Notes under the pieces: generated by a model
What the model was told of the DNA's origin: nothing
Databases searched by the model: none
The model's input: the letters and a program-made list of their open reading frames with translations, nothing else
Shown: positions 10 through 64,000 of the stretch, in pieces
How the letters are laid out: each line of letters begins with the position of its first letter
Numbering within the stretch: the stretch's first letter is position 1
Made by a program: the position numbers and the translations under genes
DNA from: Candidatus Omnitrophota bacterium
Lineage (GTDB): Bacteria; Omnitrophota; Gorgyraeia; Tantalellales; Tantalellaceae
Assembly (NCBI GenBank): GCA_035403965.1
Contig: DAONGE010000003.1
Location: forward strand, 17,860 to 81,859
Length of the DNA: 64,000 nt
Direction: 5' to 3'

Positions 10-2499
10 TTATTCGGAGCCTGGCCAATTTATTTTGTATATGATAATTTTTGTTTTGAGTATCGGGTTTTCGACTTCTCCGAATTTTTCAAAACATTTT
101 AAACCCGAGCCCTTCAGATAGTACAACCTAAATAACATGGATGTCAGTACGGTTCTGGGACCTACGATGCAGTTGTACCCTGCCGGGTAAGGTATCAGTA
201 TCAATGAAAGCCTGAGATTCGAGTTTTTAAGGAGTTTTTCGGTGAATTCGCCGGTATCATTTAGGTATATGATAGACTCCGGTATTCCCGACACCTTGTT
301 CTCAAGGTTATTAATGAAAGCTTCCATAAGTTTTGTGTTAAGCATGACACCGTTAGGGTAAATTATGACATCGTTTTCTTTTCGCAAAGGCGTCATCTCT
401 CCGCTTAAATAAGGCATCCCTCCTGATATAGACCAAACTGAGGACACGTTATTCTGTGATCCGCGCCACAGAAAGTTACCTTTTTTAAATTCGGTATAAC
501 GTTTTTTTTCAAGGTCCAAGGCTTTTGAAAAATCCCAGTTTTTGACATAACAAAGTCCTAGAGTTCCTTCTACGAGATCGTTGTATAGGAAACAATAAGC
601 AGGGGGAGGGGGGCCGTACATTAATGGCAGGATTTCATCCACGGTTTTATCTTCGATCAAAATGCTTTTTAGAAATTTTTTCGCGGATCCTTTATCCATT
701 TCAGACATTGCTCTGATGGTGTTCACGGTATTCGATATGTCTAAACCGTTCTCAAGCAATATCTCAGTGGCCCTGTTGCCGCTGAGATTCAGCATCCTGA
801 GTATGCGGAGGGATCTTTTTTCATTGTTATCCAGCAAGAAAAGAGACATCCAGTATGCTTGTGGAGTATTTATTGTTGCGCCGTCAAAAACTACGCGCCG
901 TTCTGCGATCGATTTTATGAAATGTCCCGGCGGCCACCAGGTGTTAATAATGCTGGCTGCCGGCGTATTGTTCTTAATGCTTTCAAGTGCCTCTTGCCAT
1001 ACAGTGTTAAAAAGCGGCAGCTGTGTGTAGGAGCTTACATGTGCGTAGGTGATGGGCATTGCAAGCGATACCAAAAGTGCGGCGGAGAGAACCTTTGTGA
1101 GATAAGACATGTGTTTTTCAGGTAGCGTCTTCAACGATTTCAAAAAATGCCAAAGTTCATTCAGCGCACAGGCGAAACACAATGAAGCCACAGGTAGCAG
1201 GAATAGAACGAATCTTTGAGCCGTTTTGCTAAATAAAAAACAAGTAGTGAAAAGTACTGCAAGAGAAAGTTCCGGAAACGCGTGCTTATCCTTGAGCGCT
1301 TTGAGGAATAAAAGTGCGGTCCCCAGGACGGAAAGAGGGAGAAGCAAAATTCCGCCAAGCAGGTGAAATATCTTGATCATTGAAGGGACATTGAGTTCGC
1401 CGACAGTAAGGAAAATATCCGGCCAAGGTGCGGATTTTAGAAATAAAAATCCTGAAAAAATATCCAGAATATCTTTTGTGGAATACATGAAACCTGACGG
1501 AGTAAGAAAAATGGCGGTTACTGTAGGTGTAATGATCCAGTAGATGAATAAATAACGCAGGAAAGGTCCCGGTTGGCGAGCGGATAGGCCCCGTATGGTC
1601 AAGCAAACAAAAACAATGGACATGAGCAGTGGGACGATCAGCCATCCTTGCCACATAAGGGAATAAACGGCGCTGGCTAATGATAACAGTACAAGATATA
1701 CGACGCTGTGCTTCTCGCCGGGCATTATTAGCTTTAACAGCAGAAAAACGGCAAGGAGCAGTAAGAAGACATTGTAGGGGTCGGTGTCAAACCATCCGAA
1801 GGCACTTCTCTGGAGAAAAATAGGTGATAACGAAAAGAAAAACGAACTTATGAACGCGATAAAATTCGGGATGTTCAAAACACGACATATCATAAAAAAC
1901 AGAAGCATCGAAAGACAGAAAAATATTACCGGTACGGTCGCAAGCGAGAAAATTATGGATACTCCGGGGCTGAATAATGAGTATAGCTTATATGTGATAT
2001 AGCCGATATAGGGGTGGAGTTCTATCAGTCTCCAATGTCCGTATGGCGCCATCATAAGGGGGTGCCAGTATTTACCGTCTTTTATTTTAGGGGATATTTT
2101 TCCGGTCGAGATGATATTTGTCGTGAGTTGGAGATAAAAATACGGGTCAGATTCGAGTAGATAAAAACGCAGAAGATCGTTTTTCTGCCCTGACCGCACT
2201 AGCCTTACGGCCTTATCTATGTCTTTTTTGTTGTTTTGAAGCACGGACTGGAATTGTTTTTCAAAGAGGGCCTTTTTTTCATCCGTCCGCGCGTTTGGGT
2301 ACATGCGTTCAATATTGCCGGCGAGTTGTTTTTGTATGTTCGAATATACCACAAAACGGTAAAGTTCGTTATTTCGTGTGTTTAGGTTATACAGGTCGGC
2401 ATAAAGCCGAAAATGGATGCCGACCGCTATACTTATCAGTATCAGCAGGGTGTATTTGACGCTTTCTTTTCGTAGCCACGACTTCAGTATGTGTTCCAT
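10..2499 (-). CDS. Polytopic membrane glycosyltransferase, STT3/PglB-like oligosaccharyltransferase family (GT39/YfhO-type alternative)
   Basis: 829-aa ORF that fills the gene with no stop. More than 10 predicted TM helices sit in the N-terminal two-thirds, followed by a soluble C-terminal domain. An acidic loop motif 'GWFDTDPY' lies after TM1. A 'TWWPPGHF' motif at about aa 505 resembles the OST WWDYG motif, and is followed by a 'LLDNNEK' (DK/DNN-like) motif. Confidence 0.45.
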   Translation of the reverse strand: MEHILKSWLRKESVKYTLLILISIAVGIHFRLYADLYNLNTRNNELYRFVVYSNIQKQLAGNIERMYPNARTDEKKALFEKQFQSVLQNNKKDIDKAVRLVRSGQKNDLLRFYLLESDPYFYLQLTTNIISTGKISPKIKDGKYWHPLMMAPYGHWRLIELHPYIGYITYKLYSLFSPGVSIIFSLATVPVIFFCLSMLLFFMICRVLNIPNFIAFISSFFFSLSPIFLQRSAFGWFDTDPYNVFLLLLAVFLLLKLIMPGEKHSVVYLVLLSLASAVYSLMWQGWLIVPLLMSIVFVCLTIRGLSARQPGPFLRYLFIYWIITPTVTAIFLTPSGFMYSTKDILDIFSGFLFLKSAPWPDIFLTVGELNVPSMIKIFHLLGGILLLPLSVLGTALLFLKALKDKHAFPELSLAVLFTTCFLFSKTAQRFVLFLLPVASLCFACALNELWHFLKSLKTLPEKHMSYLTKVLSAALLVSLAMPITYAHVSSYTQLPLFNTVWQEALESIKNNTPAASIINTWWPPGHFIKSIAERRVVFDGATINTPQAYWMSLFLLDNNEKRSLRILRMLNLSGNRATEILLENGLDISNTVNTIRAMSEMDKGSAKKFLKSILIEDKTVDEILPLMYGPPPPAYCFLYNDLVEGTLGLCYVKNWDFSKALDLEKKRYTEFKKGNFLWRGSQNNVSSVWSISGGMPYLSGEMTPLRKENDVIIYPNGVMLNTKLMEAFINNLENKVSGIPESIIYLNDTGEFTEKLLKNSNLRLSLILIPYPAGYNCIVGPRTVLTSMLFRLYYLKGSGLKCFEKFGEVENPILKTKIIIYKINWPGSE

Positions 2500-3853: not shown

Positions 3854-6178
3854 TCATTTTCGCGCGGATCTATCCAGTATCACTATGATCAGAGCTAACA
3901 GAGATATTCCTGCTATGGGCAGCGAGGCGGTGTATAGAAATGCTCCAGTTCCGAATATGGCGAAGGACATTACAAAAATTTTTTTATCCCGAAAAAAAGA
4001 TATTATCTGGTTTTGTTCGGTCGGAATAAATCCTATGCATGCGGAGATAGATGTCATTCCGCCGAAAGCCATCAGGATGAGCCCGGCCATTTCGCATGGC
4101 TGGTTTCGGAAGGGTGTGAAAACTAAGGAATTGTTGAGAGACGGGTAAAAAATCCCTAAAGTTATGATAGATATGCCAAAAATAAAAAAAAGTGATGGCA
4201 ATGTCCCGACGTATAAAAGACTTTTTTGCTTGAAGCGTATTTGTGACAATATTTTTGCCAATATAAGCCCAAAAAGGAATAGGATGGCTTCGATCTTGGC
4301 TATTACGGTAGAGTAGGCGGAGGTGTCTTTTTTTGATGTAAACGTATCAATCGAAGAGTTTTGTACCTGAGAAGTTATATCCTGGATTATGCCGAAGATC
4401 CGTTTTTTGATCCTATCCAGACCCAATGTATCGGCCTCCGGGGTTGCCGCGGTTTTTGTATCAGTGATATTTGGCATAAAGAAAGGTAATGCCATGTTTT
4501 CCGAGGCTTCCTTCATTGTAGAAGTATTTTTGTTACGGGTTTCTTTGACCGCCAGTGAGCCGGATTCTATATCTGTGCCATTGTCGTCGGATGTGCTCCC
4601 CTCGTCTAATTCCATACGGTCTATGTGAGGGGAGAACAAGGTCGGTTCGAATATTATCCATCCTTTTTGTGTTCCCAGAAACAAGGTCGCATGCATCTCT
4701 TCGATACTGAGTGTTTTTTCGCCGTTCTTATCCAATGGGAAAAAACCGACCAGCATTACTGGCGAAAGATCGAGGTAAGAAAGATATATGAAAGAATATG
4801 TGGTGAGTATATCACAGTCGCATATGAACGGTTCTCCTGTGCTGATCTTTTCTGATAACATTGAGTTCCATGTTTTTTGGTGTTCCAGATATATGTCGGT
4901 GCCGCCAGCCTGATAGGCAAAAAATTTATTCATTATTGTGGCGACCGCGAATAGCTTGTTGTCCTCGGTGGAATTTTTGTTTTTCCAAAGGATCTCCTGT
5001 ATTTCTGCGGGGATATCGGCGAATTCTTTTTCAAGCCATCCCGTCGGATCATGTTGTATATTTATGAATTTGCCGCAGCCGTTCTTTTTTGAGATTTTAT
5101 ATTCGTACGTTCTGGGAGCTGTATTGGTCAACGCGGACAAAATGCCGTTCGGTGTGATGTCGAAATCCCGGAGAATTGACTCGTCTTGTGATGTTATGCC
5201 GTTAAGGAGAAACGGCAACTGTATGGACTGGTCGGTAGATAAAGAGGGGATCTGCATTTGGATTGATATTGTTTTTGCTCCGCTAAGAGAGATTGGTTGC
5301 GAAGATGAGCCTGTTATGAGAGGTGGGACGAATGAAAGGCTTTCTGAACGCGCAAAACGTCCATCCGTAAGATGGTCGAAAAAAGAATAAACAAAATAAT
5401 CGGTTATTTGGGCGTTTGAGACCTTGGCGATCGCGCCGGATATGCTGATCTCTTCATTCTTTTTGACCGGTGTAGGTGCCGTTAATTTTTCGGATTCCGG
5501 GACAAACACATTGCTGATAGGTTTTATGTCGATTATTGATTCCTGGGCCCGGGATGATCCTTCAACAGTTCCTTTATCTTGCAGCGGAATATTTTTCTTG
5601 TTGTCCTGGAACGGGGATAATAGTGCCGAACCGTCTTCGGACAGATTGGGTTCATCTTTTTCATCGGTCTTTTTGTCTGCACCGGAAGCTCCACTGATCC
5701 CTCCCCCGGAATTTGAACCGCCGGATACCGGGACCGTAGCGGGTCGGGTCGGGCTTTCAGTTAATGCTGATGGAGGAGTTTGGCCGGTGTTCATAAACGG
5801 ATTTTTCTGTCCGGCCGTTATTCCTCCTTTTGCGTCATGTACATTTGTTGTTTTTGGAGGCAGGTTAATAGATTTCCCTATTTCGGCAGGGATGTTTTTT
5901 TTGTGCACGGTAAGGTTGCTTTTTTTGTCGGAATCTTTAGAAGGGTTTGCCGATTTGTACACGATTATTATTGATATCAGAGATACCGTTAATACGACCA
6001 TAACTACCTGTATGATGTCCTGTATTATGATTTTTGGCAGGGGAGGAAGGATGGCTTTGTCAGAGATCTGTTTACGCAGAGATTCTCTTGGACCAAAAAA
6101 ACGTACAGCTAATGGCAGAAAAAGTATAGCCAGAAGTAAGATAATGAGACCCATGAAAAAAAGTAAAATTATGGCCAT
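3854..6178 (-). CDS. Membrane protein with transglutaminase-like cysteine-protease core and low-complexity Ser/Thr/Pro/Gly linker
   Basis: 774 aa. TM helices at the N-terminus and a cluster of about 6 TM helices at the C-terminus. The central region has 'GEPFICDCDILTTYSF' (Cys nucleophile context) and 'HATLFLGTQKGWIIFEPT' (His ... W..xxPT), matching the transglutaminase-like C/H/D(E) arrangement. There are long S/T/P/G-rich stretches. Confidence 0.5.
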   Translation of the reverse strand: MAIILLFFMGLIILLLAILFLPLAVRFFGPRESLRKQISDKAILPPLPKIIIQDIIQVVMVVLTVSLISIIIVYKSANPSKDSDKKSNLTVHKKNIPAEIGKSINLPPKTTNVHDAKGGITAGQKNPFMNTGQTPPSALTESPTRPATVPVSGGSNSGGGISGASGADKKTDEKDEPNLSEDGSALLSPFQDNKKNIPLQDKGTVEGSSRAQESIIDIKPISNVFVPESEKLTAPTPVKKNEEISISGAIAKVSNAQITDYFVYSFFDHLTDGRFARSESLSFVPPLITGSSSQPISLSGAKTISIQMQIPSLSTDQSIQLPFLLNGITSQDESILRDFDITPNGILSALTNTAPRTYEYKISKKNGCGKFINIQHDPTGWLEKEFADIPAEIQEILWKNKNSTEDNKLFAVATIMNKFFAYQAGGTDIYLEHQKTWNSMLSEKISTGEPFICDCDILTTYSFIYLSYLDLSPVMLVGFFPLDKNGEKTLSIEEMHATLFLGTQKGWIIFEPTLFSPHIDRMELDEGSTSDDNGTDIESGSLAVKETRNKNTSTMKEASENMALPFFMPNITDTKTAATPEADTLGLDRIKKRIFGIIQDITSQVQNSSIDTFTSKKDTSAYSTVIAKIEAILFLFGLILAKILSQIRFKQKSLLYVGTLPSLFFIFGISIITLGIFYPSLNNSLVFTPFRNQPCEMAGLILMAFGGMTSISACIGFIPTEQNQIISFFRDKKIFVMSFAIFGTGAFLYTASLPIAGISLLALIIVILDRSARK

Positions 6179-6411
6179 TTTTAGTCCAGGTAAACCAATT
6201 AATTTTTTTGGATACGATCGTTGCTATATGAAGAAGTATATACAAAAAATGTCGCTTTTCCAATGGAGATGTGTGTCATCTTCGATAGCCACTGCGATTC
6301 CCTCGACAGAACGCTTTGCTCTGATCTTTACCGCATGGTAGTGGTGCGCATGTCTAGGCTCGATTTTTAGACATTTATTTTTGGATTTGGTATAATACTT
6401 AAGATGGTAAT

Positions 6412-7581
6412 ATGAAAAATCCGACGATCGTATTTATATTTATTCTGTGCCTGATTTTGAAGAACACAAGTGCCTTTTCTGATGAACAGGCTGCCTATCA
6501 GTATAATCAAAAAGGTATAGAATGCATGCAAGCCGGCAGATTTGAGGAGGCTATTGAGGCCCTTAAAACGGCGCACCGATATCTTCCGTCGAATGAAACC
6601 GTAAAGAGGAATCTTTGTATCGCCTATAATAATTATGGCTTTTCTCTGATGAAAAAAGGGGACTATTCGTCCGCTATTGAACAATATGAAAATGCCATTT
6701 ATTATGGGGTCGATATCGCTTATACCTATTATAATCTCGGACAGGCGTATTATATGACACAGGATATGTCGAAGGCCAGAGACGCTTTGGAAAAGGCTTA
6801 CAGCTTGAATCCTAAAATAAACGGTTTAAATGAGTTGTTACGCAAGGCCCGAGGCGAGGAAAAAGTCGAGAATCGTCTTGAAACCGTAGAAACAATGCAT
6901 TTTGTCCTAGCTTGTCCGCCGGATACTGATAGAGACGCTATATCGTTTGTTCAGACGCAGATAGAGGAGGCATATGGAAAGATAGCGATGTTCCTTGATC
7001 ATGCGCCGCGAAATAAAACCGTTGTGATCATTTATCCTGAAGAAGCGTACGCGAGATTATTGGGAGGAAGACCTTCCTGGGGGTTGGCTACGTTTGATGG
7101 CAAGGTCAGGATACCCGCCAGGCGCATTAAATATTCCGGAGAAGATGTCCTAAAGATGATATATCATGAATACGCGCACGCGGTAATTTTAGATATGGCT
7201 CGAGGAAGATGCCCTAATTGGTTCAGTGAAGGTGTGGCCAGTAAAGCGGAAGATTTTGGCGCGGCCAAAGACAGGGATGTGATACGTAAGTATATAGAAA
7301 GATACGGTATCATTCCGATCGATGGGTTTCCGGCGGATTTTTCCAGGGTTCGGGATATGAACCGGGCCGTTTTGATGTACATCGAAGCTTATCTGGTAGT
7401 TGATTTTCTTCAGCGGACTTCAGGGAACTCGGGAGTTCGCGATGTCTTGATAAAAGTCGGGCAGGGTATGGGGCTTAAACAGGCGATAGAGTCGGTGACG
7501 GGTGATAGTTTCGCCGGTTTTGAGCAAAAATGGAAGGCCTATGTTATAGACGAATATCGGATCAGTATGGACGGCAGATGA
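6412..7581 (+). CDS. Exported TPR-repeat protein with C-terminal HExxH zinc-peptidase-like domain
   Basis: Signal peptide 'MKNPTIVFIFILCLILKNTSAFS'. Several TPR-like repeats follow (AY.N.G...G.YEEAI). 'MIYHEYAHAVILDM' is an HExxH motif. Confidence 0.6.
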   Translation: MKNPTIVFIFILCLILKNTSAFSDEQAAYQYNQKGIECMQAGRFEEAIEALKTAHRYLPSNETVKRNLCIAYNNYGFSLMKKGDYSSAIEQYENAIYYGVDIAYTYYNLGQAYYMTQDMSKARDALEKAYSLNPKINGLNELLRKARGEEKVENRLETVETMHFVLACPPDTDRDAISFVQTQIEEAYGKIAMFLDHAPRNKTVVIIYPEEAYARLLGGRPSWGLATFDGKVRIPARRIKYSGEDVLKMIYHEYAHAVILDMARGRCPNWFSEGVASKAEDFGAAKDRDVIRKYIERYGIIPIDGFPADFSRVRDMNRAVLMYIEAYLVVDFLQRTSGNSGVRDVLIKVGQGMGLKQAIESVTGDSFAGFEQKWKAYVIDEYRISMDGR

Positions 7582-7668
7582 GAGTTGTGCCGGATCCAAA
7601 AAATAATGTTTCATTTGCGTGAAAGAAACGGTTCTGCAATTGTTGTCTCACTCGGCGAAGCGTGAAGA

Positions 7669-7717
7669 TCTGCCATGGACGATTTCCTTATTCGGAGAAG
7701 TTTGTGTTCTTTCTACC
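7669..7717 (+). repeat. Repeat family A copy 1 ('acgatttcc..ttcggagaagtttgtgttctttctaccgtggacgctc')
   Basis: Matches 33605..33653 with about 3 mismatches. A reverse-complement partial copy lies at 7928..7955, and diverged relatives at 13163.. and 55205... Confidence 0.7.
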
Positions 7718-7927
7718 GTGGACGCTCGAAATCCCCGGCGACCGAGGACGAAATGTCCGAGGGAGTGCCGAGGCCTCCGGACGAGGCCGACTCACTTCGC
7801 TCAGCGTTCGGCCTCGCTCTCCGGCTTTGCCAAAAAAGTCATCCCCGCATGCTTTAGGCGGGGATCCATAAAATTAAAAAAATGTGTCGCTCCGCCGGAT
7901 ACATGCCCGCTCGGCCTCACGATGCTA

Positions 7928-7955
7928 CGTCCGAAAGAACACAAACTTCTCCGAG
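7928..7955 (-). repeat. Inverted partial copy of repeat A
   Basis: 'cgtccgaaagaacacaaacttctccgag' is the reverse complement of 'ctcggagaagtttgtgttctttcggacg'. Together with 7669..7717 it forms an inverted pair flanking about 210 bp. Confidence 0.65.
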
Positions 7956-8045
7956 AAAAAAGTATTCATTCCATACCTTCTCGTTCCGCCTGTGTAACAA
8001 CAGGGGATCGTGAGTTTTTCCCATTCTCCTCCACAATAATCGGAT

Positions 8046-8171
8046 ACATAGCTACGGTGGGCATGTCAGATTTGCCGTTATCCGATTAAAAATAATTTAC
8101 GCATCAGCGCGAGTCAAACGCCGGGAGATCAGAAATAAAAAGGCGAATCGGACATGCCCGCCGTAGCTATG
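8046..8171. repeat. Long imperfect inverted repeat (21-nt arms, about 80-nt loop)
   Basis: 'catagctacggtgggcatgtc' at 8046..8066 pairs with 'gacatgcccgccgtagctatg' at 8150..8170 with one mismatch. The loop segment 'aaataatttacgcatc...gcgagtcaaacgccgggagatcagaaataaaaag' recurs at 13720..13775. Confidence 0.6.
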
Positions 8172-8325
8172 CAGTGAGATGCTTTTACTCGAATATTTAC
8201 TGGCGAGAAACGGTGCGTGCGGTAGAGCTTGTTTTGAGAGAGGATCGCTTTGTGAAGAAAATAGCTTGTTCGGCTATAAGATGTGATATAATAATTTCGT
8301 TCAACGATCGATAAAGGGGGTAAAT

Positions 8326-13079: not shown

Positions 13080-13560
13080 ACACTAAGCAAGGCCGAGGCC
13101 GATCCTCCTTCGTCCGGTACTCGGGCATCCCCGGCCTTGCTTCTATCACATATTCGGAGAATTCCGCTTGCGGATTCGCCTCAGCCTGTTCGGAAGTTCT
13201 GCGCGCTTCAGAAAAATACCCTGTTATTTTTGATCTCCAGGCGTTTGATACTTCGCTGAAGCGTAAAATATTTTTATCTTTTGCGGGTATTTTTCTTAAG
13301 TGCTCGAACATTCCGAACAGGCGGATCGAGGGAAAAGTGTTTTAAGGTTCATGTGTTTTTCTATTTTTTTCAAAATAGTCATGGAGCTCGCAGGGCGTAA
13401 TCCCGCACCGAACACATAGTGTTCTGGTGCGGGATAAAATTCTCTGGGAAATCGTATCCACTCCATAACTTCTCGTTTCGCCAATTCAACCGAATGTGGA
13501 TCGTGTGCGAGGCAAATGAATGTGAACTCGTGAATGATGTACAGCAATGACATCAACCTT

Positions 13561-13652
13561 GTCATGCCCGAATGTTTTTATCGGGCATCCATAACATAAA
13601 AATCATCTCATTTTTATATCATAGATTCCCGCTTAATGCGTGCGGGAATGAC
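13561..13652. mobile_element. MITE-like hairpin element (family B), copy 1, about 92 bp with about 10-bp terminal inverted repeats 'gtcatgcccg'/'cgggaatgac'
   Basis: Copies at 33661..33752 and 57434..57530 align nearly base for base. An internal hairpin 'atgcccgaatg..atcgggcat' and a second hairpin 'tcccgcttaatgcgtgcggga' are present. Confidence 0.7.
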
Positions 13653-13821
13653 AGTGGTGGATTGTGTTGAAGATGTCGTGCGAAAATCCGAGCATTGGAG
13701 AGAAAAGCCCACAATAGATAAAAGTAAATTACGCATCCATGCTAGGCGAACGCCGGGAGAATAAAAATAACAGGGCTTTTCTCGAAACGCGCAGGATGAC
13801 GCGCGACATTTAAGAGGAAGT

Positions 13822-33555: not shown

Positions 33556-33604
33556 GGATCTAAGGGGAAAATTTTTTTTGAGTGTGAAGTCTTCTGTTGT
33601 TCAT

Positions 33605-33653
33605 ACGATTTCTTCATTCGGAGAAGCTTGTGTTCTTTCTACCGTGGACGCTC
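33605..33653 (+). repeat. Repeat family A copy 2
   Basis: 'acgatttcttcattcggagaagcttgtgttctttctaccgtggacgctc' matches 7669..7717. It lies directly upstream of MITE-like copy 2. Confidence 0.7.
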
Positions 33654-33660
33654 AATTCAT

Positions 33661-33752
33661 GTCATGCCCGAATGCTTCTATCGGGCATCCATAACATTAA
33701 AATCATCTCATTTTTATTTCATAGATTCCCGCTAAAAGCATGCGGGAATGAC
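33661..33752. mobile_element. MITE-like hairpin element (family B), copy 2
   Basis: Matches copy 1 (13561..13652) with about 8 substitutions. The loop substitutions keep both hairpins intact. Confidence 0.7.
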
Positions 33753-33766
33753 ATTACATGTTTTTT

Positions 33767-33787
33767 GGGGCGGGGAAACCCCGCCCC
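33767..33787. repeat. Perfect GC palindrome 'ggggcgggg aaa ccccgcccc'
   Basis: Read directly. It abuts the end of MITE-like copy 2. Confidence 0.6.
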
Positions 33788-34048
33788 TACGTAATCATCG
33801 AATTTCGAATCTCTACACATTTGTTATTGCAATGACGCTGTATATTCCCGCTTCCGCTATCGCTTTTTCTACAAAAGCCTACATATCTACGGCTGACTTT
33901 CTCCCCACCTGCAGGAAATTTACTCAAAAACTCGTTTGGAAGGGGAAGTGAGGATGCGCTTATGTTAGTATTTCAAAAATCCAGATATTCTGATTTGAAA
34001 CGTTGCATAATAATAGGCATATTTGTTAGTGTAACAAAAATATATATG

Positions 34049-34090
34049 CGCTTGCCCGAGAGATATGTCCGTAGTGGGCAAGATTTTTTA
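34049..34090 (+). terminator. Terminator-like hairpin plus U-tract about 30 nt upstream of the giant ORF
   Basis: 'cttgcccgagagatatgtccgtagtgggcaag' followed by 'atttttta'. Confidence 0.4.
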
Positions 34091-34115
34091 TGCCCCATTA
34101 TTTAAAAGATTATAA

Positions 34116-37100
34116 ATGAGAGTAGATATGGGAAGATTAAGCAGGATGATAGACAGCGGGAAGGTGAAAACACTGTTCAAAAAGACGGTGTCTTCTATTG
34201 TGGCGTTTACTTTTCTTGCTACTAGTTTCTATTACGATAATGCCCAGGCTTCAAATATCAGTATGCCAGTCGTAGCGGTCGACAGTAACCCGGTAAATTC
34301 TTCAACAAATAATATACAGAGAATCCTTGATCCCAAAACATTTACTTTGCCGGAGAACTTGGGAAAGGTTGTCGATTCATGGGCAGTGAAAGATGCCCTT
34401 AAGAACGGCGACGCGAAACTTGTTATCTACATTCAGGACGCGCATTGTAACTACGGCGCGCAGAATTCCATTTCCGAGATCATCGATCTGCTCAATAAAG
34501 AATATTCCGTGAACATGGTCAATCTTGAAGGAGGAACAGGCGATTATGATCTTTCGGTTTTTACGGATATCAAGGATAAGGCGATCCGCGCCAAGGTAGC
34601 GGATTATTTTGAGAAAGAGGGGATACTGAGCGGCGCGGAATCGTTCGCCGCAAATAATCCCGAAAAGGTATCGCTCTGGGGGCTGGAAAACACCGAACTT
34701 TATATCAAAAATCTAAATGTCTATCGCGATTCGCTTACATATAAAAACGAGGCTGAAGGCTATATAAAAGCGATAAGTCGCGATCTTTCTGCGCTGAAAA
34801 CGAAGATTTACTCGCCGGAATTGCTGTCTCTGGATATGAAATACACGGCGTATAAAGCGGGGAATGCGGATCTAAAGACATATCTTCTTGGGTTAACTGA
34901 GACGGCTAAGAATGAGGGTATAAACCTTAAGTCCTATCCGAATATTTTCTTTATGATCCAGACTCTGGCTCTTGAGAACACTATCAATTTCAAAAGGGCC
35001 GAGACCGAACGAAGTATCCTGGTGGATGAATTGAGCAAAAAACTGCCGAAAAGCAGGATGGAAGACCTCGCCGCTAAAACTATTGAGTTCAGGTCAGGAA
35101 AAGTGTCGCAAAGGTATTTTTATGCGTATCTGCTGGACGAAGCGAAGATGATAAATCTTGAGATCGACACCTTCGGCGAACTCAAGAAATATATGCTTTA
35201 TATCGAGATCTTCGATGCCGTGGATAAGTCGAGAATCATGGATGAGATGGAAGGACTTGAGAACGCGGTGCGTGCAAGTATCTACACGAACGATGATGAA
35301 CGCTCTCTTAATACGCTTTCAAAGAACCTTATCCTTCTTAAGAATATGTTCAATATCTCGTTCACCCGGAGCGATCACAAATATTACAAGGACAACGCCA
35401 AGGGTTTCGCCGCGGAAGGGTTCATCTCGTTCATAAAAACGGAATCCCCGAAGTACGGGATAACCCCGTCGGCGGACGAAAAAGCCCTCGCGCTCGATAA
35501 ATTCCGCGAAGAGATATCCTGTTTTTATGAATATTCGTTCGCGAGGGACGAGGTGTTCATAAAAAACATAAAGATGAACGCTACTCCCTCCGCTAATGCT
35601 AAATGCGCGGTTATGGTAAGCGGCGGTTTCCATTCCGAGAACATGTATGAACTTTTCCGGAAGAACAATATATCGTACATATCGATAATGCCTAATTTTA
35701 AGAATTGCGACGGGTATGAATGCCCGTATTTCGATCTCTTGGGCGGTAAATACGGTAAGGTGCTGAACGCCCTTTCCGGTAGTGCGACATCGAATTTGGC
35801 GTTGTTTAGTTTCTTCTGTAAAGATGCATCGACGGTGGTCAACGGGGAGATGACGGAGGCTGGGGTTAAGACATGGTCGGTTCTTGTAAGGGCTATGTTT
35901 GAGTCCGATCTTTCAAAGGGACCGGTCGAGGTCAAAGGTGAAGGGGATAATGTTGGATACGTTATCGGTGGAGAGCCTGACCCTAATAACGAAAGCATTA
36001 CTCTCGATATGGACGGGAGACGAGTTCTGGTTCAGCGCGTAAAAACAGCCGAAAATATTTTATCTGCAACCGTCGCTGGAGATGTGGGAGCGAATGCTAA
36101 AAATGTTGGTATGAAGTCTGTCGCAACCCCGGATGATACGGAATTTTTATCATATTCTAAAATGACGCCAGAGGAATTGGATCGTGTCGAATCGGATCTT
36201 GTACAGAAAGTGCGTGGGTTATGTATGCGTCATGCCGGGCTGGCAGCTAGCGCATCCGATATTGACAATATTGCGGATATCTGTCGTAGCGTTTTATGGC
36301 TTGATGTTTATTTGACAGACAGGAAAGAGGTCGAGCGGGAGTTTTTAGAATCGTTTGATCTCATTACCCAGATATTTCATGGGAATCAGATATTAGAGCT
36401 TTTGGTGTCAGTGCTTCGTTTTGCCGATGAAGCGGAAAGAGGCAACGAGGATGCGGTGGAATTTGTGAAGAGTGTGGCAAAATTACAAGCGATCAACGAT
36501 GTTCCCAGTCAGGATGGCCGTTCGCAGACATTGCCATATTGTAAAAGTCGGAAGCCATATCTGGACATGGCGAGCGGACCGAATATTATATATTTCACAG
36601 CAGATATAAAGCAAAATGCCCAGGTTGAACACTATCTGGTGGATACTTCCTTGTTCGCGAATACATATCTCAAAATGGTCATGGCATTGAGAAATATTCA
36701 TAACGTAGAAGTGAAACAAGAAGATGTGCTGAATTTAAATTTCAAAGAGGGGAGTTTGGGCGCAGTTCGTCTGAAAAATTTATATACATATGTGCGAGAA
36801 CAGGTTTTAAAACAAATTGTCCAAAAATATGGCGAGGTGGATCTTGACTTCCACCTAAAAGAATATTGGGATGAATATTGGGATCGGGTGGCGGCTTGGC
36901 TTGAACCGGCGGCTATGGTCGATGGACATGTCCAAATCCGTGGACAGATATTTGTGCAGTCCGATTTGTCGGTGGGGCACCGGGCTAACATGGCTGAGAT
37001 CGTGCATGATATGTACGATGTGCTGGTTTCCCAAAAAGGCTGGGCGTTTGATTTTAAACTGGGGATTGATAAAGGTGGTTTTAGATATGATGTGCTTGAT

Positions 37101-55097: not shown

Positions 55098-55100
55098 TTC

Positions 55101-55145
55101 AATGGGGACGTCCTCCGAGATGCTACCTCGGAGGACGTCCCCATT
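55101..55145 (+). terminator. Perfect 19-bp stem hairpin immediately after the giant-gene stop, with no U-tract
   Basis: 'aatggggacgtcctccgag atgctac ctcggaggacgtccccatt'. It starts 4 nt after the TAA stop. Confidence 0.45.
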
Positions 55146-55540
55146 GCCTCGCACACTATCCCCATTCAGTTGACTTGGCGAAAAGGGAGGTTCTGTCGTT
55201 CAGACGATTTCCTTTTTCGGAGAATTTTCTAACAATTTTGGCGCCTGCGGGACTCGCTTTAACGGGACATTCGTTCTTTGGCAGAACGTATGTCCCGTTA
55301 AAGCTCAAACAGTCCTCGGCGGCCTTGTCATTCACATTCCAAGTCTTCCCAAAATAGTTATAAAATTCTCCGGGAAATCGTATTCACTCCATCCCTTCCC
55401 GTTTCGCCAAGTAGACCGAAAGGGGGTATGACTCTTTTAGCGAAGACGGAGAGCTTCATTAATCTTGTCATGGCTATGTTTCGGTGGTAACATAAACTCA
55501 TATGTTTATTGTGCTTTTAGCATAAACTAAGGGGGAAGAG

Positions 55541-57390: not shown

Positions 57391-57433
57391 CGCTTCGGAC
57401 GGTTTTCGGCCGTGTAAAACTATGCTGTCCATT

Positions 57434-57530
57434 GTCACCCCCGAATGTTTTAATCGGGGGTCAATAATATTAAGTGGGAAAGAGTTGTATTTGGTTTCAT
57501 GGATGCCCGATAAAAGCGCTCGGGCATGAC
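57434..57530. mobile_element. MITE-like hairpin element (family B), copy 3 (diverged)
   Basis: The 5' hairpin is 'gtcacccccgaatgttttaatcgggggt'. Compensatory g/c stem changes distinguish it from copies 1 and 2. The 3' end 'ctcgggcatgacattg' matches the terminal inverted repeat. Confidence 0.6.
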
Positions 57531-57665
57531 ATTGATAAACATAATGTCGGCAAAGTTTGTAACAGTACCGTCGCCCGAACTGTCTTGCAAAACAAACGTC
57601 ATAAGGGTAATCTATATCTGACATATTTTTAGGTGCTTTGTACGGACCGCTATTTTGGATAAAAA

Positions 57666-63338: not shown

Positions 63339-64000
63339 TTGAGCACGGTATTCACAACATATCGACGGGCTGTTCTATATACTATATGTAAAGCTATTGG
63401 AAACGGGGATTTAACCAAATTTTTAAGGTCGGTGGTGGCAGTATCCACGATAGCGGCCTTTTTGGGGAATAGTATTGGTGTAGAACTGGCCGGCGCAATG
63501 GAAAAACCGGATATGCGTTTTCCTGCTCCGGTGGATGTCTTGTCTGTAAATAACAGCGATCGAGCCCTAACAGGTCTTTGCCTGCCCGCGAGTCTTGGCG
63601 AAATAAAAAAACAATATGCCGGCACTAACGGAAAAACCGTTATTAATATCCAAGACGCCCATTGTAATTATTCATGCCAGAAAAATATCAGTTTGATTTT
63701 TGATCTCTTGAACCAAGAGACGAATGTTAACGTCGCTCTTTTAGAAGGAGGCGCGGGTGAATACGATCTGTCTGTTTTTCAGGATATGAAAGACGTGGAG
63801 ATCCGCGAAAAAGTAGCGGATTATTTTGTGAAAGAGGGCAGGATGAACGGTGCCGAGTATTTTGCCGTTAATAATCCGGGGCGCGTAACGTTGAAGGGGC
63901 TTGAGGATGAAAATGCTTATCTGAAAAACCTTAAAATATACCGCGATAATGTCAGGTCAAAGGACAAAGCTGAATTTATCCTTAAAAGTTTATCTAATGC
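63339..64000 (+). CDS. 5' part of a second gene paralogous to the giant protein N-terminus. It is interrupted by a +1 frameshift in an A7 run and continues beyond the window edge.
   Basis: RBS 'aggag' at 63329-33, then TTG at 63339. Frame 0 gives 'DLTKFLRSVVAVSTIAAFLGNSIGV...TGLCLPASLG' and ends at 63627. Frame +1, open from 63571, gives 'EIKKQYAGTNGKTVINIQDAHCNYSCQKNISLIFDLLNQETNVNVALLEGGAGEYDLSVF...'. Both frames align to giant-protein residues about 15 to 240. The frames meet around 'ggcgaaataaaaaaacaa' (63597..63614). Confidence 0.55.
   Translation, partial: MSTVFTTYRRAVLYTICKAIGNGDLTKFLRSVVAVSTIAAFLGNSIGVELAGAMEKPDMRFPAPVDVLSVNNSDRALTGLCLPASLGEIKKQYAGTNGKTVINIQDAHCNYSCQKNISLIFDLLNQETNVNVALLEGGAGEYDLSVFQDMKDVEIREKVADYFVKEGRMNGAEYFAVNNPGRVTLKGLEDENAYLKNLKIYRDNVRSKDKAEFILKSLSN

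Follow-up and report, generated by a model that had tools for sequence, protein, structure and literature searches.

Intergenic repeats of an Omnitrophota genome: probable inverted doublets of the NTS/SRM-type DNA hairpin, possibly derived from ssn gene cassettes

A 64-kb stretch of DNA from an Omnitrophota metagenome-assembled genome (MAG), here called the window, harbors three elements of 92-97 bp and one solo half, all of them intergenic. These are quite probably inverted doublets of the NTS/SRM-type DNA hairpin, the family of sites on which the nuclease Ssn acts, and possibly gene-less derivatives of an ssn cassette. A repeat of this Omnitrophota genome that had no annotation is hereby placed in an experimentally characterised system of Ssn and its hairpin sites. 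To judge from the sequences, what is new are the doublets with 9-nt loops in an uncultured member of the Omnitrophota, whereas the NTS/SRM repeat family with Ssn had already been described. Two modest points are added to the published NTS/SRM-Ssn system: the reading of the doublet as a cassette without its gene, and the occurrence in Omnitrophota of intergenic mosaics similar to the NIMEs of Neisseria.

The three elements and the half copy were found with the positions and sequences reported by the first-pass annotation (Table 1). Searching the window by nhmmer with the three full copies as query returned only these three and the half copy at 7838 (E 4e-8); each full copy also matched its own reverse complement (E 1e-13 to 1e-19), and the rest of the 64 kb gave no further match below E about 0.1. 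None of the four sites lies in coding sequence, which makes up ca. 93% of the window; with four random sites, the chance of this is ca. 3e-5. Search and coding check agree with the earlier description of a multi-copy, intergenic family with terminal inverted repeats.

Table 1. Repeat elements, hairpin units and mosaic modules in the 64-kb window. Slashes mark the element ends.
Feature	Position	Strand	Remarks
Doublet 1	13560..13653	.	ends T/GTCAT...ATGAC/A; nhmmer, unit finder, folding
Doublet 1, unit(+)	13561-13589		stem ATGCCCGA
Doublet 1, spacer	13590-13623		AT-rich, own small hairpin
Doublet 1, unit(-)	13624-13652		stem ATTCCCGC
Doublet 2	33660..33753	.	unit(+) 33661-33689; unit(-) 33724-33752
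Doublet 3	57433..57531	.	diverged subfamily, 39-nt spacer; abhydrolase/GGDEF intergene
Doublet 3, unit(+)	57434-57462		stem ACCCCCGA
Doublet 3, unit(-)	57502-57530		stem ATGCCCGA
Solo unit	7838..7866	+	stem ATCCCCGC, loop ATGCTTTAG; exact match to published SRM search pattern
Units U1-U7	7838(+), 13561(+), 13652(-), 33661(+), 33752(-), 57434(+), 57530(-)		the seven window units, labelled in this order
Mosaic array	7582..8325	.	several short repeat modules, both orientations, around solo unit
Mosaic array	13080..13821	.	contains doublet 1; ca. 110-nt inverted modules 13199-13306 and 13794-13689
Mosaic array	33556..34115	.	contains doublet 2
Mosaic spacer	55098-55540		modules recur here too
Second repeat family	13199-13306/13794-13689; 13436-13515; 7650-7727; 7943-7990; 8087-8144; 33592-33653; 55144-55228; 55349-55428		

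Each element is composed of two inverted copies of a single 29-nt unit, which consists of (T)GTC, an 8-bp stem strand, a 9-nt loop, the complementary stem strand and C; the loop consensus is ATGCTTTTA. A unit finder (GTC[AT], an 8-bp stem with at least 7 pairs, a loop of 3-12 nt, and C) detected exactly seven units in the window, with zero false matches. The GTC located 5' of the palindrome and the C located 3' of it are invariant in all seven units, and all eight stem pairs are formed in each. The stems occur in four perfectly paired variants (ATGCCCGA, ATTCCCGC, ATCCCCGC and ACCCCCGA), and the compensatory changes that had been noticed between ATGCCCGA/TCGGGCAT, ACCCCCGA/TCGGGGGT and ATCCCCGC/GCGGGGAT are real, with ATTCCCGC/GCGGGAAT as an additional case. 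Since the element consists of two inverted 29-nt units, its terminal inverted repeats and its two hairpins are the same thing; the hairpins are not internal, as had been proposed, and the architecture is indeed REP/REPIN-like in the sense of an inverted doublet of palindromic units. The left end of doublets 1 and 2, reverse-complemented, gives the right end of doublet 3, and the conserved termini extend one base further on each side (T/GTCAT...ATGAC/A). Doublets 1 and 2 are 93% identical over 94 nt, spacer included. The AT-rich spacer of the 92-bp subfamily folds into a weak hairpin of its own, the third in the element, and folding of the elements as single-stranded DNA beats that of shuffled sequences (z = -3.6 to -4.9).

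Genes of the context include hydEFG, pyrG, carAB, an ORF of 6993 amino acids, upstream of which doublet 2 is located, and a GGDEF response regulator. The window sequence is also present in contig CAYWFL010000005.1 (MAG GCA_964457255.1) and recurs in anaerobic-digester metagenomes. The 6993-aa ORF (34116-55097, + strand) has mosaics on both sides and gives acetyltransferase domain hits as well as faint hits to methyltransferase and HATPase_c_3; its N-terminal region (34527-34687) shows 72% DNA identity to 63744-63904, close to where the next very large gene begins. At 10-2499 (- strand) this bacterial MAG encodes an 829-aa homolog of STT3-type oligosaccharyltransferase (PF02516).

The link to a known system was found through a full-text search for the unit core sequence, which led to the work of Chenal et al. 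(Nat Commun 2025; PMC11893778). The Neisseria Transformation Sequence (NTS) is CGTCATTCCCGCGMAVGCGGGAATCYRG and encompasses the classical dRS3 repeat; the degenerate Ssn-related motif (SRM) reads HGTCWY N(0-2) YYVSBRH N(0-5) WNVSBRG N(0-2) RNCYNB. SsnA is a single-domain GIY-YIG protein of 94 amino acids. It binds the motif and cleaves a few nucleotides upstream of it, acting on single-stranded DNA only and in the forward orientation only. The GTC formed by the three bases 5' of the palindrome controls cleavage, the C on its 3' side is the most crucial base for binding, and loop identity is dispensable. Binding and cleavage restricted to single-stranded DNA were demonstrated for four Ssn homologs, and in Neisseria the protein and its hairpin sites restrict incoming single-stranded DNA, with an effect on transformation. 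SRMs are located near 71% of the ssnA homologs, on both sides in 42%, and 81% of the genomes with >200 SRMs encode an ssnA homolog (PMC11893778).

Similar to NTS/SRM, the window units possess a 5' (H)GTC, an 8-bp stem and a 3' C, form hairpins, are intergenic and multi-copy and, in other genomes, occur on both sides of a gene for a GIY-YIG protein of ca. 95 amino acids. Units U3 and U5 read TGTCATTCCCGC-[9-nt loop]-GCGGGAATCT, with the stem (identical: ATTCCCGC/GCGGGAAT), the GTC and the 3' C as in NTS. The published SRM pattern is matched exactly by U1, U3 and U5, as compared to 0.3 hits in Markov-simulated windows, whereas U2, U4, U6 and U7 miss it at two positions (B/V), solely due to an A:T closing pair. 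This closing pair, found in four of the seven window units, is outside the published degenerate pattern, and the loop of the window units is 9 nt instead of the 4 nt found in Neisseria. Also unlike the described cases, the host is an Omnitrophota MAG, and the host sequence searched gave no ssn gene. The dominant form here is a tight inverted doublet, an arrangement on which the cited parts of Chenal et al. place no emphasis.

Cassettes with an intact gene were found in five other genomes. In loci L014, L076, L107, L156 and L160 an ORF for a GIY-YIG protein of 96-97 amino acids (PF01541, E = 9e-17) is positioned exactly between unit(+) and unit(-). The cassette of L156 is a 353-bp segment between murE and murF with the ends T/GTCAT...ATGAC/A and the layout T/unit, 11 nt, ssn, 3 nt, unit/A. 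Locus L076 additionally contains a gene-less doublet of 78 bp at a distance of 1.2 kb from its cassette; the two have the left (CCCGC) and right (CCTGC) unit types in common, as well as the inner junction bases. The window doublet shares its ends and unit arrangement with the ssn cassette and is best read as a gene-less derivative of it.

The cassette proteins are probably Ssn proteins of the cd10448 type, an assignment supported by their size, the single PF01541 domain and the spacing of catalytic residues. Tyr7, Tyr18 and Glu65 of the L076 protein correspond, at an offset of +1, to residues Y6, Y17 and E64 of SsnA, mutation of which abolished nuclease activity (PMC11893778). The family of Ssn-like proteins comprises 6181 homologs at E <= 1e-10. 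The best 120 of these 6181 are 67-82% identical across unrelated phyla, and many of these 120 are located on contigs under 2.5 kb; a large conserved family with many members on short contigs fits a horizontally mobile, multi-copy element. Comparison of the Ssn-like proteins with NCBIfam and PDB sequences gave no specific family and no solved structure. For the host, six-frame hmmsearch revealed no ssn or GIY-YIG gene in the 64-kb window, and none was found in the other host-derived and related contigs (L001 and L127-L155; ca. 290 kb). Two Ssn homologs with a host-like source profile were considered as candidates for the host ssn and rejected, both belonging to other MAGs.

The distribution of the unit among bacteria was scanned with a 29-nt IUPAC pattern that fits all seven window units and for which about one chance match is expected in the 596-Gb species collection. 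This gave at least 120 loci in at least 20 phyla, counts that derive from a pattern which itself fixed much of the unit sequence. The matches listed belong to Omnitrophota, Bacteroidota/Ignavibacteria/Calditrichota, Elusimicrobia, Desulfobacterota, Chloroflexota, Binatia, Planctomycetota, Nitrospirota, Nitrospinota, Gemmatimonadota, Spirochaetia, several proteobacterial classes and others; the 29-nt hairpin retains its functional determinants across at least 20 phyla. The 120 pattern loci contain 242 units among the matches listed, and 69 of the 87 adjacent unit pairs are arranged with GTCAT outward, at spacers of 6-97 nt. The inverted doublet, built like the ssn gene cassette, is the predominant genomic form; solo units and further arrangements are common as well. 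Among the matches listed, the stem pair seen most often (ATGCCCGA+ATTCCCGC) is the one present in window doublets 1 and 2, and identical stems within a doublet are rarer than expected (6 observed vs 11.5, P = 0.026).

Closer to the host, a metagenome scan for units with a host-specific tail yielded 21 loci, mostly from host-containing digester samples, and 37 more units were present in 146 kb of related digester contigs. Window and related digester contigs together hold 12 doublets. At least seven of these belong to the 92-bp subfamily, being 90-96% identical, spacer included; both orientations are represented, the flanks are unrelated and the ends are sharp (T/GTCAT...ATGAC/A). The family, for which three full copies had been reported, is thus not confined to these: the 92-bp subfamily has at least seven copies, the stems covary, and units in total number dozens in the window and related contigs and hundreds across phyla among the matches listed. 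None of the 12 doublets shows a target-site duplication. Some doublet copies carry single stem mismatches, which suggests decay, and the copy in L141 has a double change that preserves pairing. The site of doublet 3 is identical in six independent assemblies, and neither an empty site nor strain polymorphism was found, these six assemblies included. In the nearest relatives (ca. 70% amino-acid identity; L131, L133 and L134) the sites are not syntenic and there are zero units. Derivation of an empty site from two paralogues (X1 vs X2) was tried and abandoned, the copies being too diverged to define insertion boundaries. Because no empty site or polymorphism was found, the case for mobility is made solely by the dispersed near-identical copies.

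We propose the following mechanism. When either strand becomes single-stranded (during replication, transformation, conjugation or repair), each unit would fold to an 8-bp GC-rich hairpin, and Ssn, a single-domain GIY-YIG protein of ca. 95 amino acids that acts on single-stranded DNA only, would bind the stem and the C just 3' of it. Since the motif is orientation-specific, an inverted pair would give each strand one cleavable site, with both cuts just outside the element. The doublet would then represent a gene-less, MITE/REPIN-like derivative of a compact unit(+)-ssn-unit(-) cassette that was multiplied in this Omnitrophota lineage, and doublets and other short modules would build NIME-like intergenic mosaics. 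Ssn would act on the window copies in this host, and we infer that Ssn, or recombination at the units, may spread the copies. The cleavage chemistry in this scheme and the effect on transformation in Neisseria are taken from the literature, and the motif identity, the hairpin covariation, the multi-copy dispersal with unrelated flanks and the cassettes in five other genomes come from the present analysis.

An analogy to insertion sequences had been raised solely as a hypothesis (Chenal et al.; PMC11893778). New circumstantial support for reading the system as a selfish element is provided by doublets that lack a gene but have unit types in common with a nearby cassette, by at least seven near-identical dispersed copies, and by the protein identity of 67-82% across phyla (best 120 of 6181). 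It is conceivable, and offered here tentatively, that the doublets are the non-autonomous, MITE-like form of a minimal selfish unit(+)-ssn-unit(-) element of ca. 350 bp, with a 96-aa GIY-YIG nuclease for single-stranded DNA as its sole protein. Such elements would form a new, hairpin-guided GIY-YIG class, spread by horizontal transfer in more than 20 bacterial phyla and building NIME-like mosaics far outside Neisseria. As part of the same tentative proposal, such a GIY-YIG-driven mobile class would be distinct from DDE, HUH, serine and tyrosine systems. If Ssn truly mobilises the doublets, they would amount to a new and very small kind of mobile element in bacteria.

The mosaics around the units consist of modules that are common to four window spacers and to loci L135-L155, with their order and orientation shuffled. 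Modules from both sides of doublet 2 recur beside units in L137, L140, L142, L146, L152 and L154. Locus L141 holds a paralogue of 13179-13692 (85% identical, 518 nt, doublet included), and the breakpoint between the L141 and window mosaics is at the right end of the doublet. Not every module is bounded by a unit. The modules of the second repeat family are ca. 50-110 nt long, occur in both orientations and are 75-98% identical to sequences in related digester contigs. An origin from a decayed GIY-YIG or RAYT gene was considered and rejected: the best tblastn match of intact Ssn proteins had E = 9.6, and nothing was found in these modules by six-frame hmmsearch, nor in Pfam at E <= 10 with their conceptual translations. 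The spacers contain other strong palindromes (13400-13435, 55100-55146, 55256-55304 and 33777-33797), for example atcccgcaccgaacac-atag-gtgttctggtgcgggat and ggggcgggg-aaa-ccccgcccc, which do not have the GTC...C signature.

In Neisseria, NIMEs consist of dRS3 palindromes (20-bp inverted repeats, ATTCCC-N8-GGGAAT) that flank many families of 50-150-bp repeats of lower GC content (Bentley et al. 2007; PMC1797815). The window arrays are similar in that short GC-rich palindromes flank a short repeat rich in AT, as in an isolated dRS3-RS-dRS3 unit, and in that they are intergenic and contain many short repeat families in variable order. Unlike dRS3, units U3 and U5 have an ATTCCC-to-GGGAAT spacing of 13 nt and the other units have ATGCCC, ATCCCC or ACCCCC; unlike NIMEs, the modules here are not all unit-bounded. 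NIMEs were stated to be absent outside Neisseria (Bentley et al. 2007; PMC1797815); the present arrays show that intergenic mosaics resembling them also occur elsewhere.

Mosaics of this kind could also arise if the units were recombination or integration sites of another enzyme, with doublets and mosaics as by-products of site-specific or homologous recombination rather than of Ssn. A site-specific recombinase was proposed for dRS3/NIME, and dRS3 is the integration target of filamentous prophages in Neisseria, as cited by Bentley et al. 2007 (PMC1797815). The mosaic breakpoint at the right end of the doublet, the shuffling of modules around units and the nested insertions inside units of L014 and L160 would fit such a process. 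However, no integrase or recombinase recurs beside units in the 120 loci listed, and the Ssn-specific conservation of GTC and C would be left unexplained. We consider this explanation unlikely as a replacement for Ssn; use of the units by another recombinase may occur, is compatible with the Ssn reading and does not exclude it.

For the NTS/SRM-type units, the nature of the hairpin can be judged from covariation in the stem, which is strong. Among the matches listed, the three stem positions left free by the pattern form Watson-Crick pairs in 99/101, 98/101 and 101/101 distinct units, with four pair types at one position and 2 G-T pairs among the 303 variable pairs. The scarcity of G-T wobble speaks for a constraint on both DNA strands and points to a DNA hairpin rather than one RNA. 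The first-pass annotation had taken preserved pairing as a sign of selection on RNA or DNA structure; the covariation is genuine, and the RNA side of the claim is not supported, given the near-absence of G-T wobble, the strand symmetry of the element and the lack of an Rfam match. Small structured RNAs, as had also been suggested, or transcript-end hairpins (terminators or mRNA stabilisers) selected at the RNA level would account for strong covarying hairpins in intergenic regions and for the position of doublet 2, which follows pyrG at a distance of 105 nt; a secondary role of REP hairpins in stabilising mRNA 3' ends is known from E. coli. Against this, pairing is kept on both strands, the elements are found in either orientation with respect to their flanks, and the stems are followed by CCAT or CTAT instead of a T-run. 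Rfam gave zero matches at gathering thresholds in the window and none over the L141 and L152 doublets at E <= 1. According to Chenal et al. (PMC11893778), the RNA version of the motif is neither bound nor acted on by SsnA. An RNA-level explanation is therefore very improbable.

REP and REPIN elements, mobilised by the HUH Y1 transposase RAYT, resemble the doublets in architecture. Both form inverted pairs of short imperfect palindromes with slightly different partners, are intergenic and multi-copy and cause no target duplications; in both systems the partner gene is itself flanked by repeats, and action on single-stranded DNA hairpins is proposed. The REP signature is a 5' GTAG tetranucleotide, and REPs are typically lineage-specific. 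In contrast, the units described here start with GTCA, match the Ssn motif instead of REP and are conserved in sequence across phyla, and the partner of NTS-type units is a GIY-YIG nuclease, not an HUH/Y1 transposase. No transposase recurs among the neighbours of the 120 loci listed, where enrichment was confined to ubiquitous families and the recurrent clusters are ordinary housekeeping families. Searching ca. 840 kb of loci with approximate RAYT queries revealed no Y1 gene near units. The search for RAYT/IS200-like genes gave a single IS200-like Y1 gene, on contig L138 from a related sample (5884-6414), but it is flanked by different repeats (GGACAGGTGTGGG-like) and located 4.3 kb from the sole unit on that locus. 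The 5' half of this gene is partially tandem-duplicated (5530-6414). Mobilisation by RAYT, as proposed earlier, is scarcely credible on these grounds. A classical MITE, i.e. a deletion derivative of an IS with a DDE transposase that moves by cut-and-paste, can practically be dismissed: the terminal inverted repeats, the size of ca. 90 bp and the intergenic dispersal of near-identical copies with sharp ends are as in MITEs such as Correia/CREE and ERIC, but unlike these there are zero target-site duplications in 12 doublets and no DDE parent element, the only gene found between such ends encodes a 96-aa GIY-YIG nuclease, and the terminal repeats are hairpin units in their own right, commonly found alone or in other arrangements.

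The hairpin units also have practical consequences. They break short-read assemblies and may also appear as spurious short translated ORFs when MAGs are annotated. Contigs from independent assemblies start or end in units or modules (start of L006; end of L143 vs position 11269 of L135; start of L128). In L014 (ca. 7110-7250) and L160 (ca. 6295-6390), the units flanking ssn are interrupted inside the stem-loop by nested insertions of ca. 60-85 nt, and hairpin units may be insertion targets for other small elements. A larger difference was observed between the window and L131, the nearest syntenic relative (ca. 71% amino-acid identity). In L131 (9893-10001) carB is directly followed by the GGDEF regulator, whereas in the window 25.7 kb (31918-57665; pyrG, the giant ORF, DUF748 and abhydrolase genes) separate the two, with doublet 3 at the right junction; this difference may reflect an insertion or a rearrangement at a unit.
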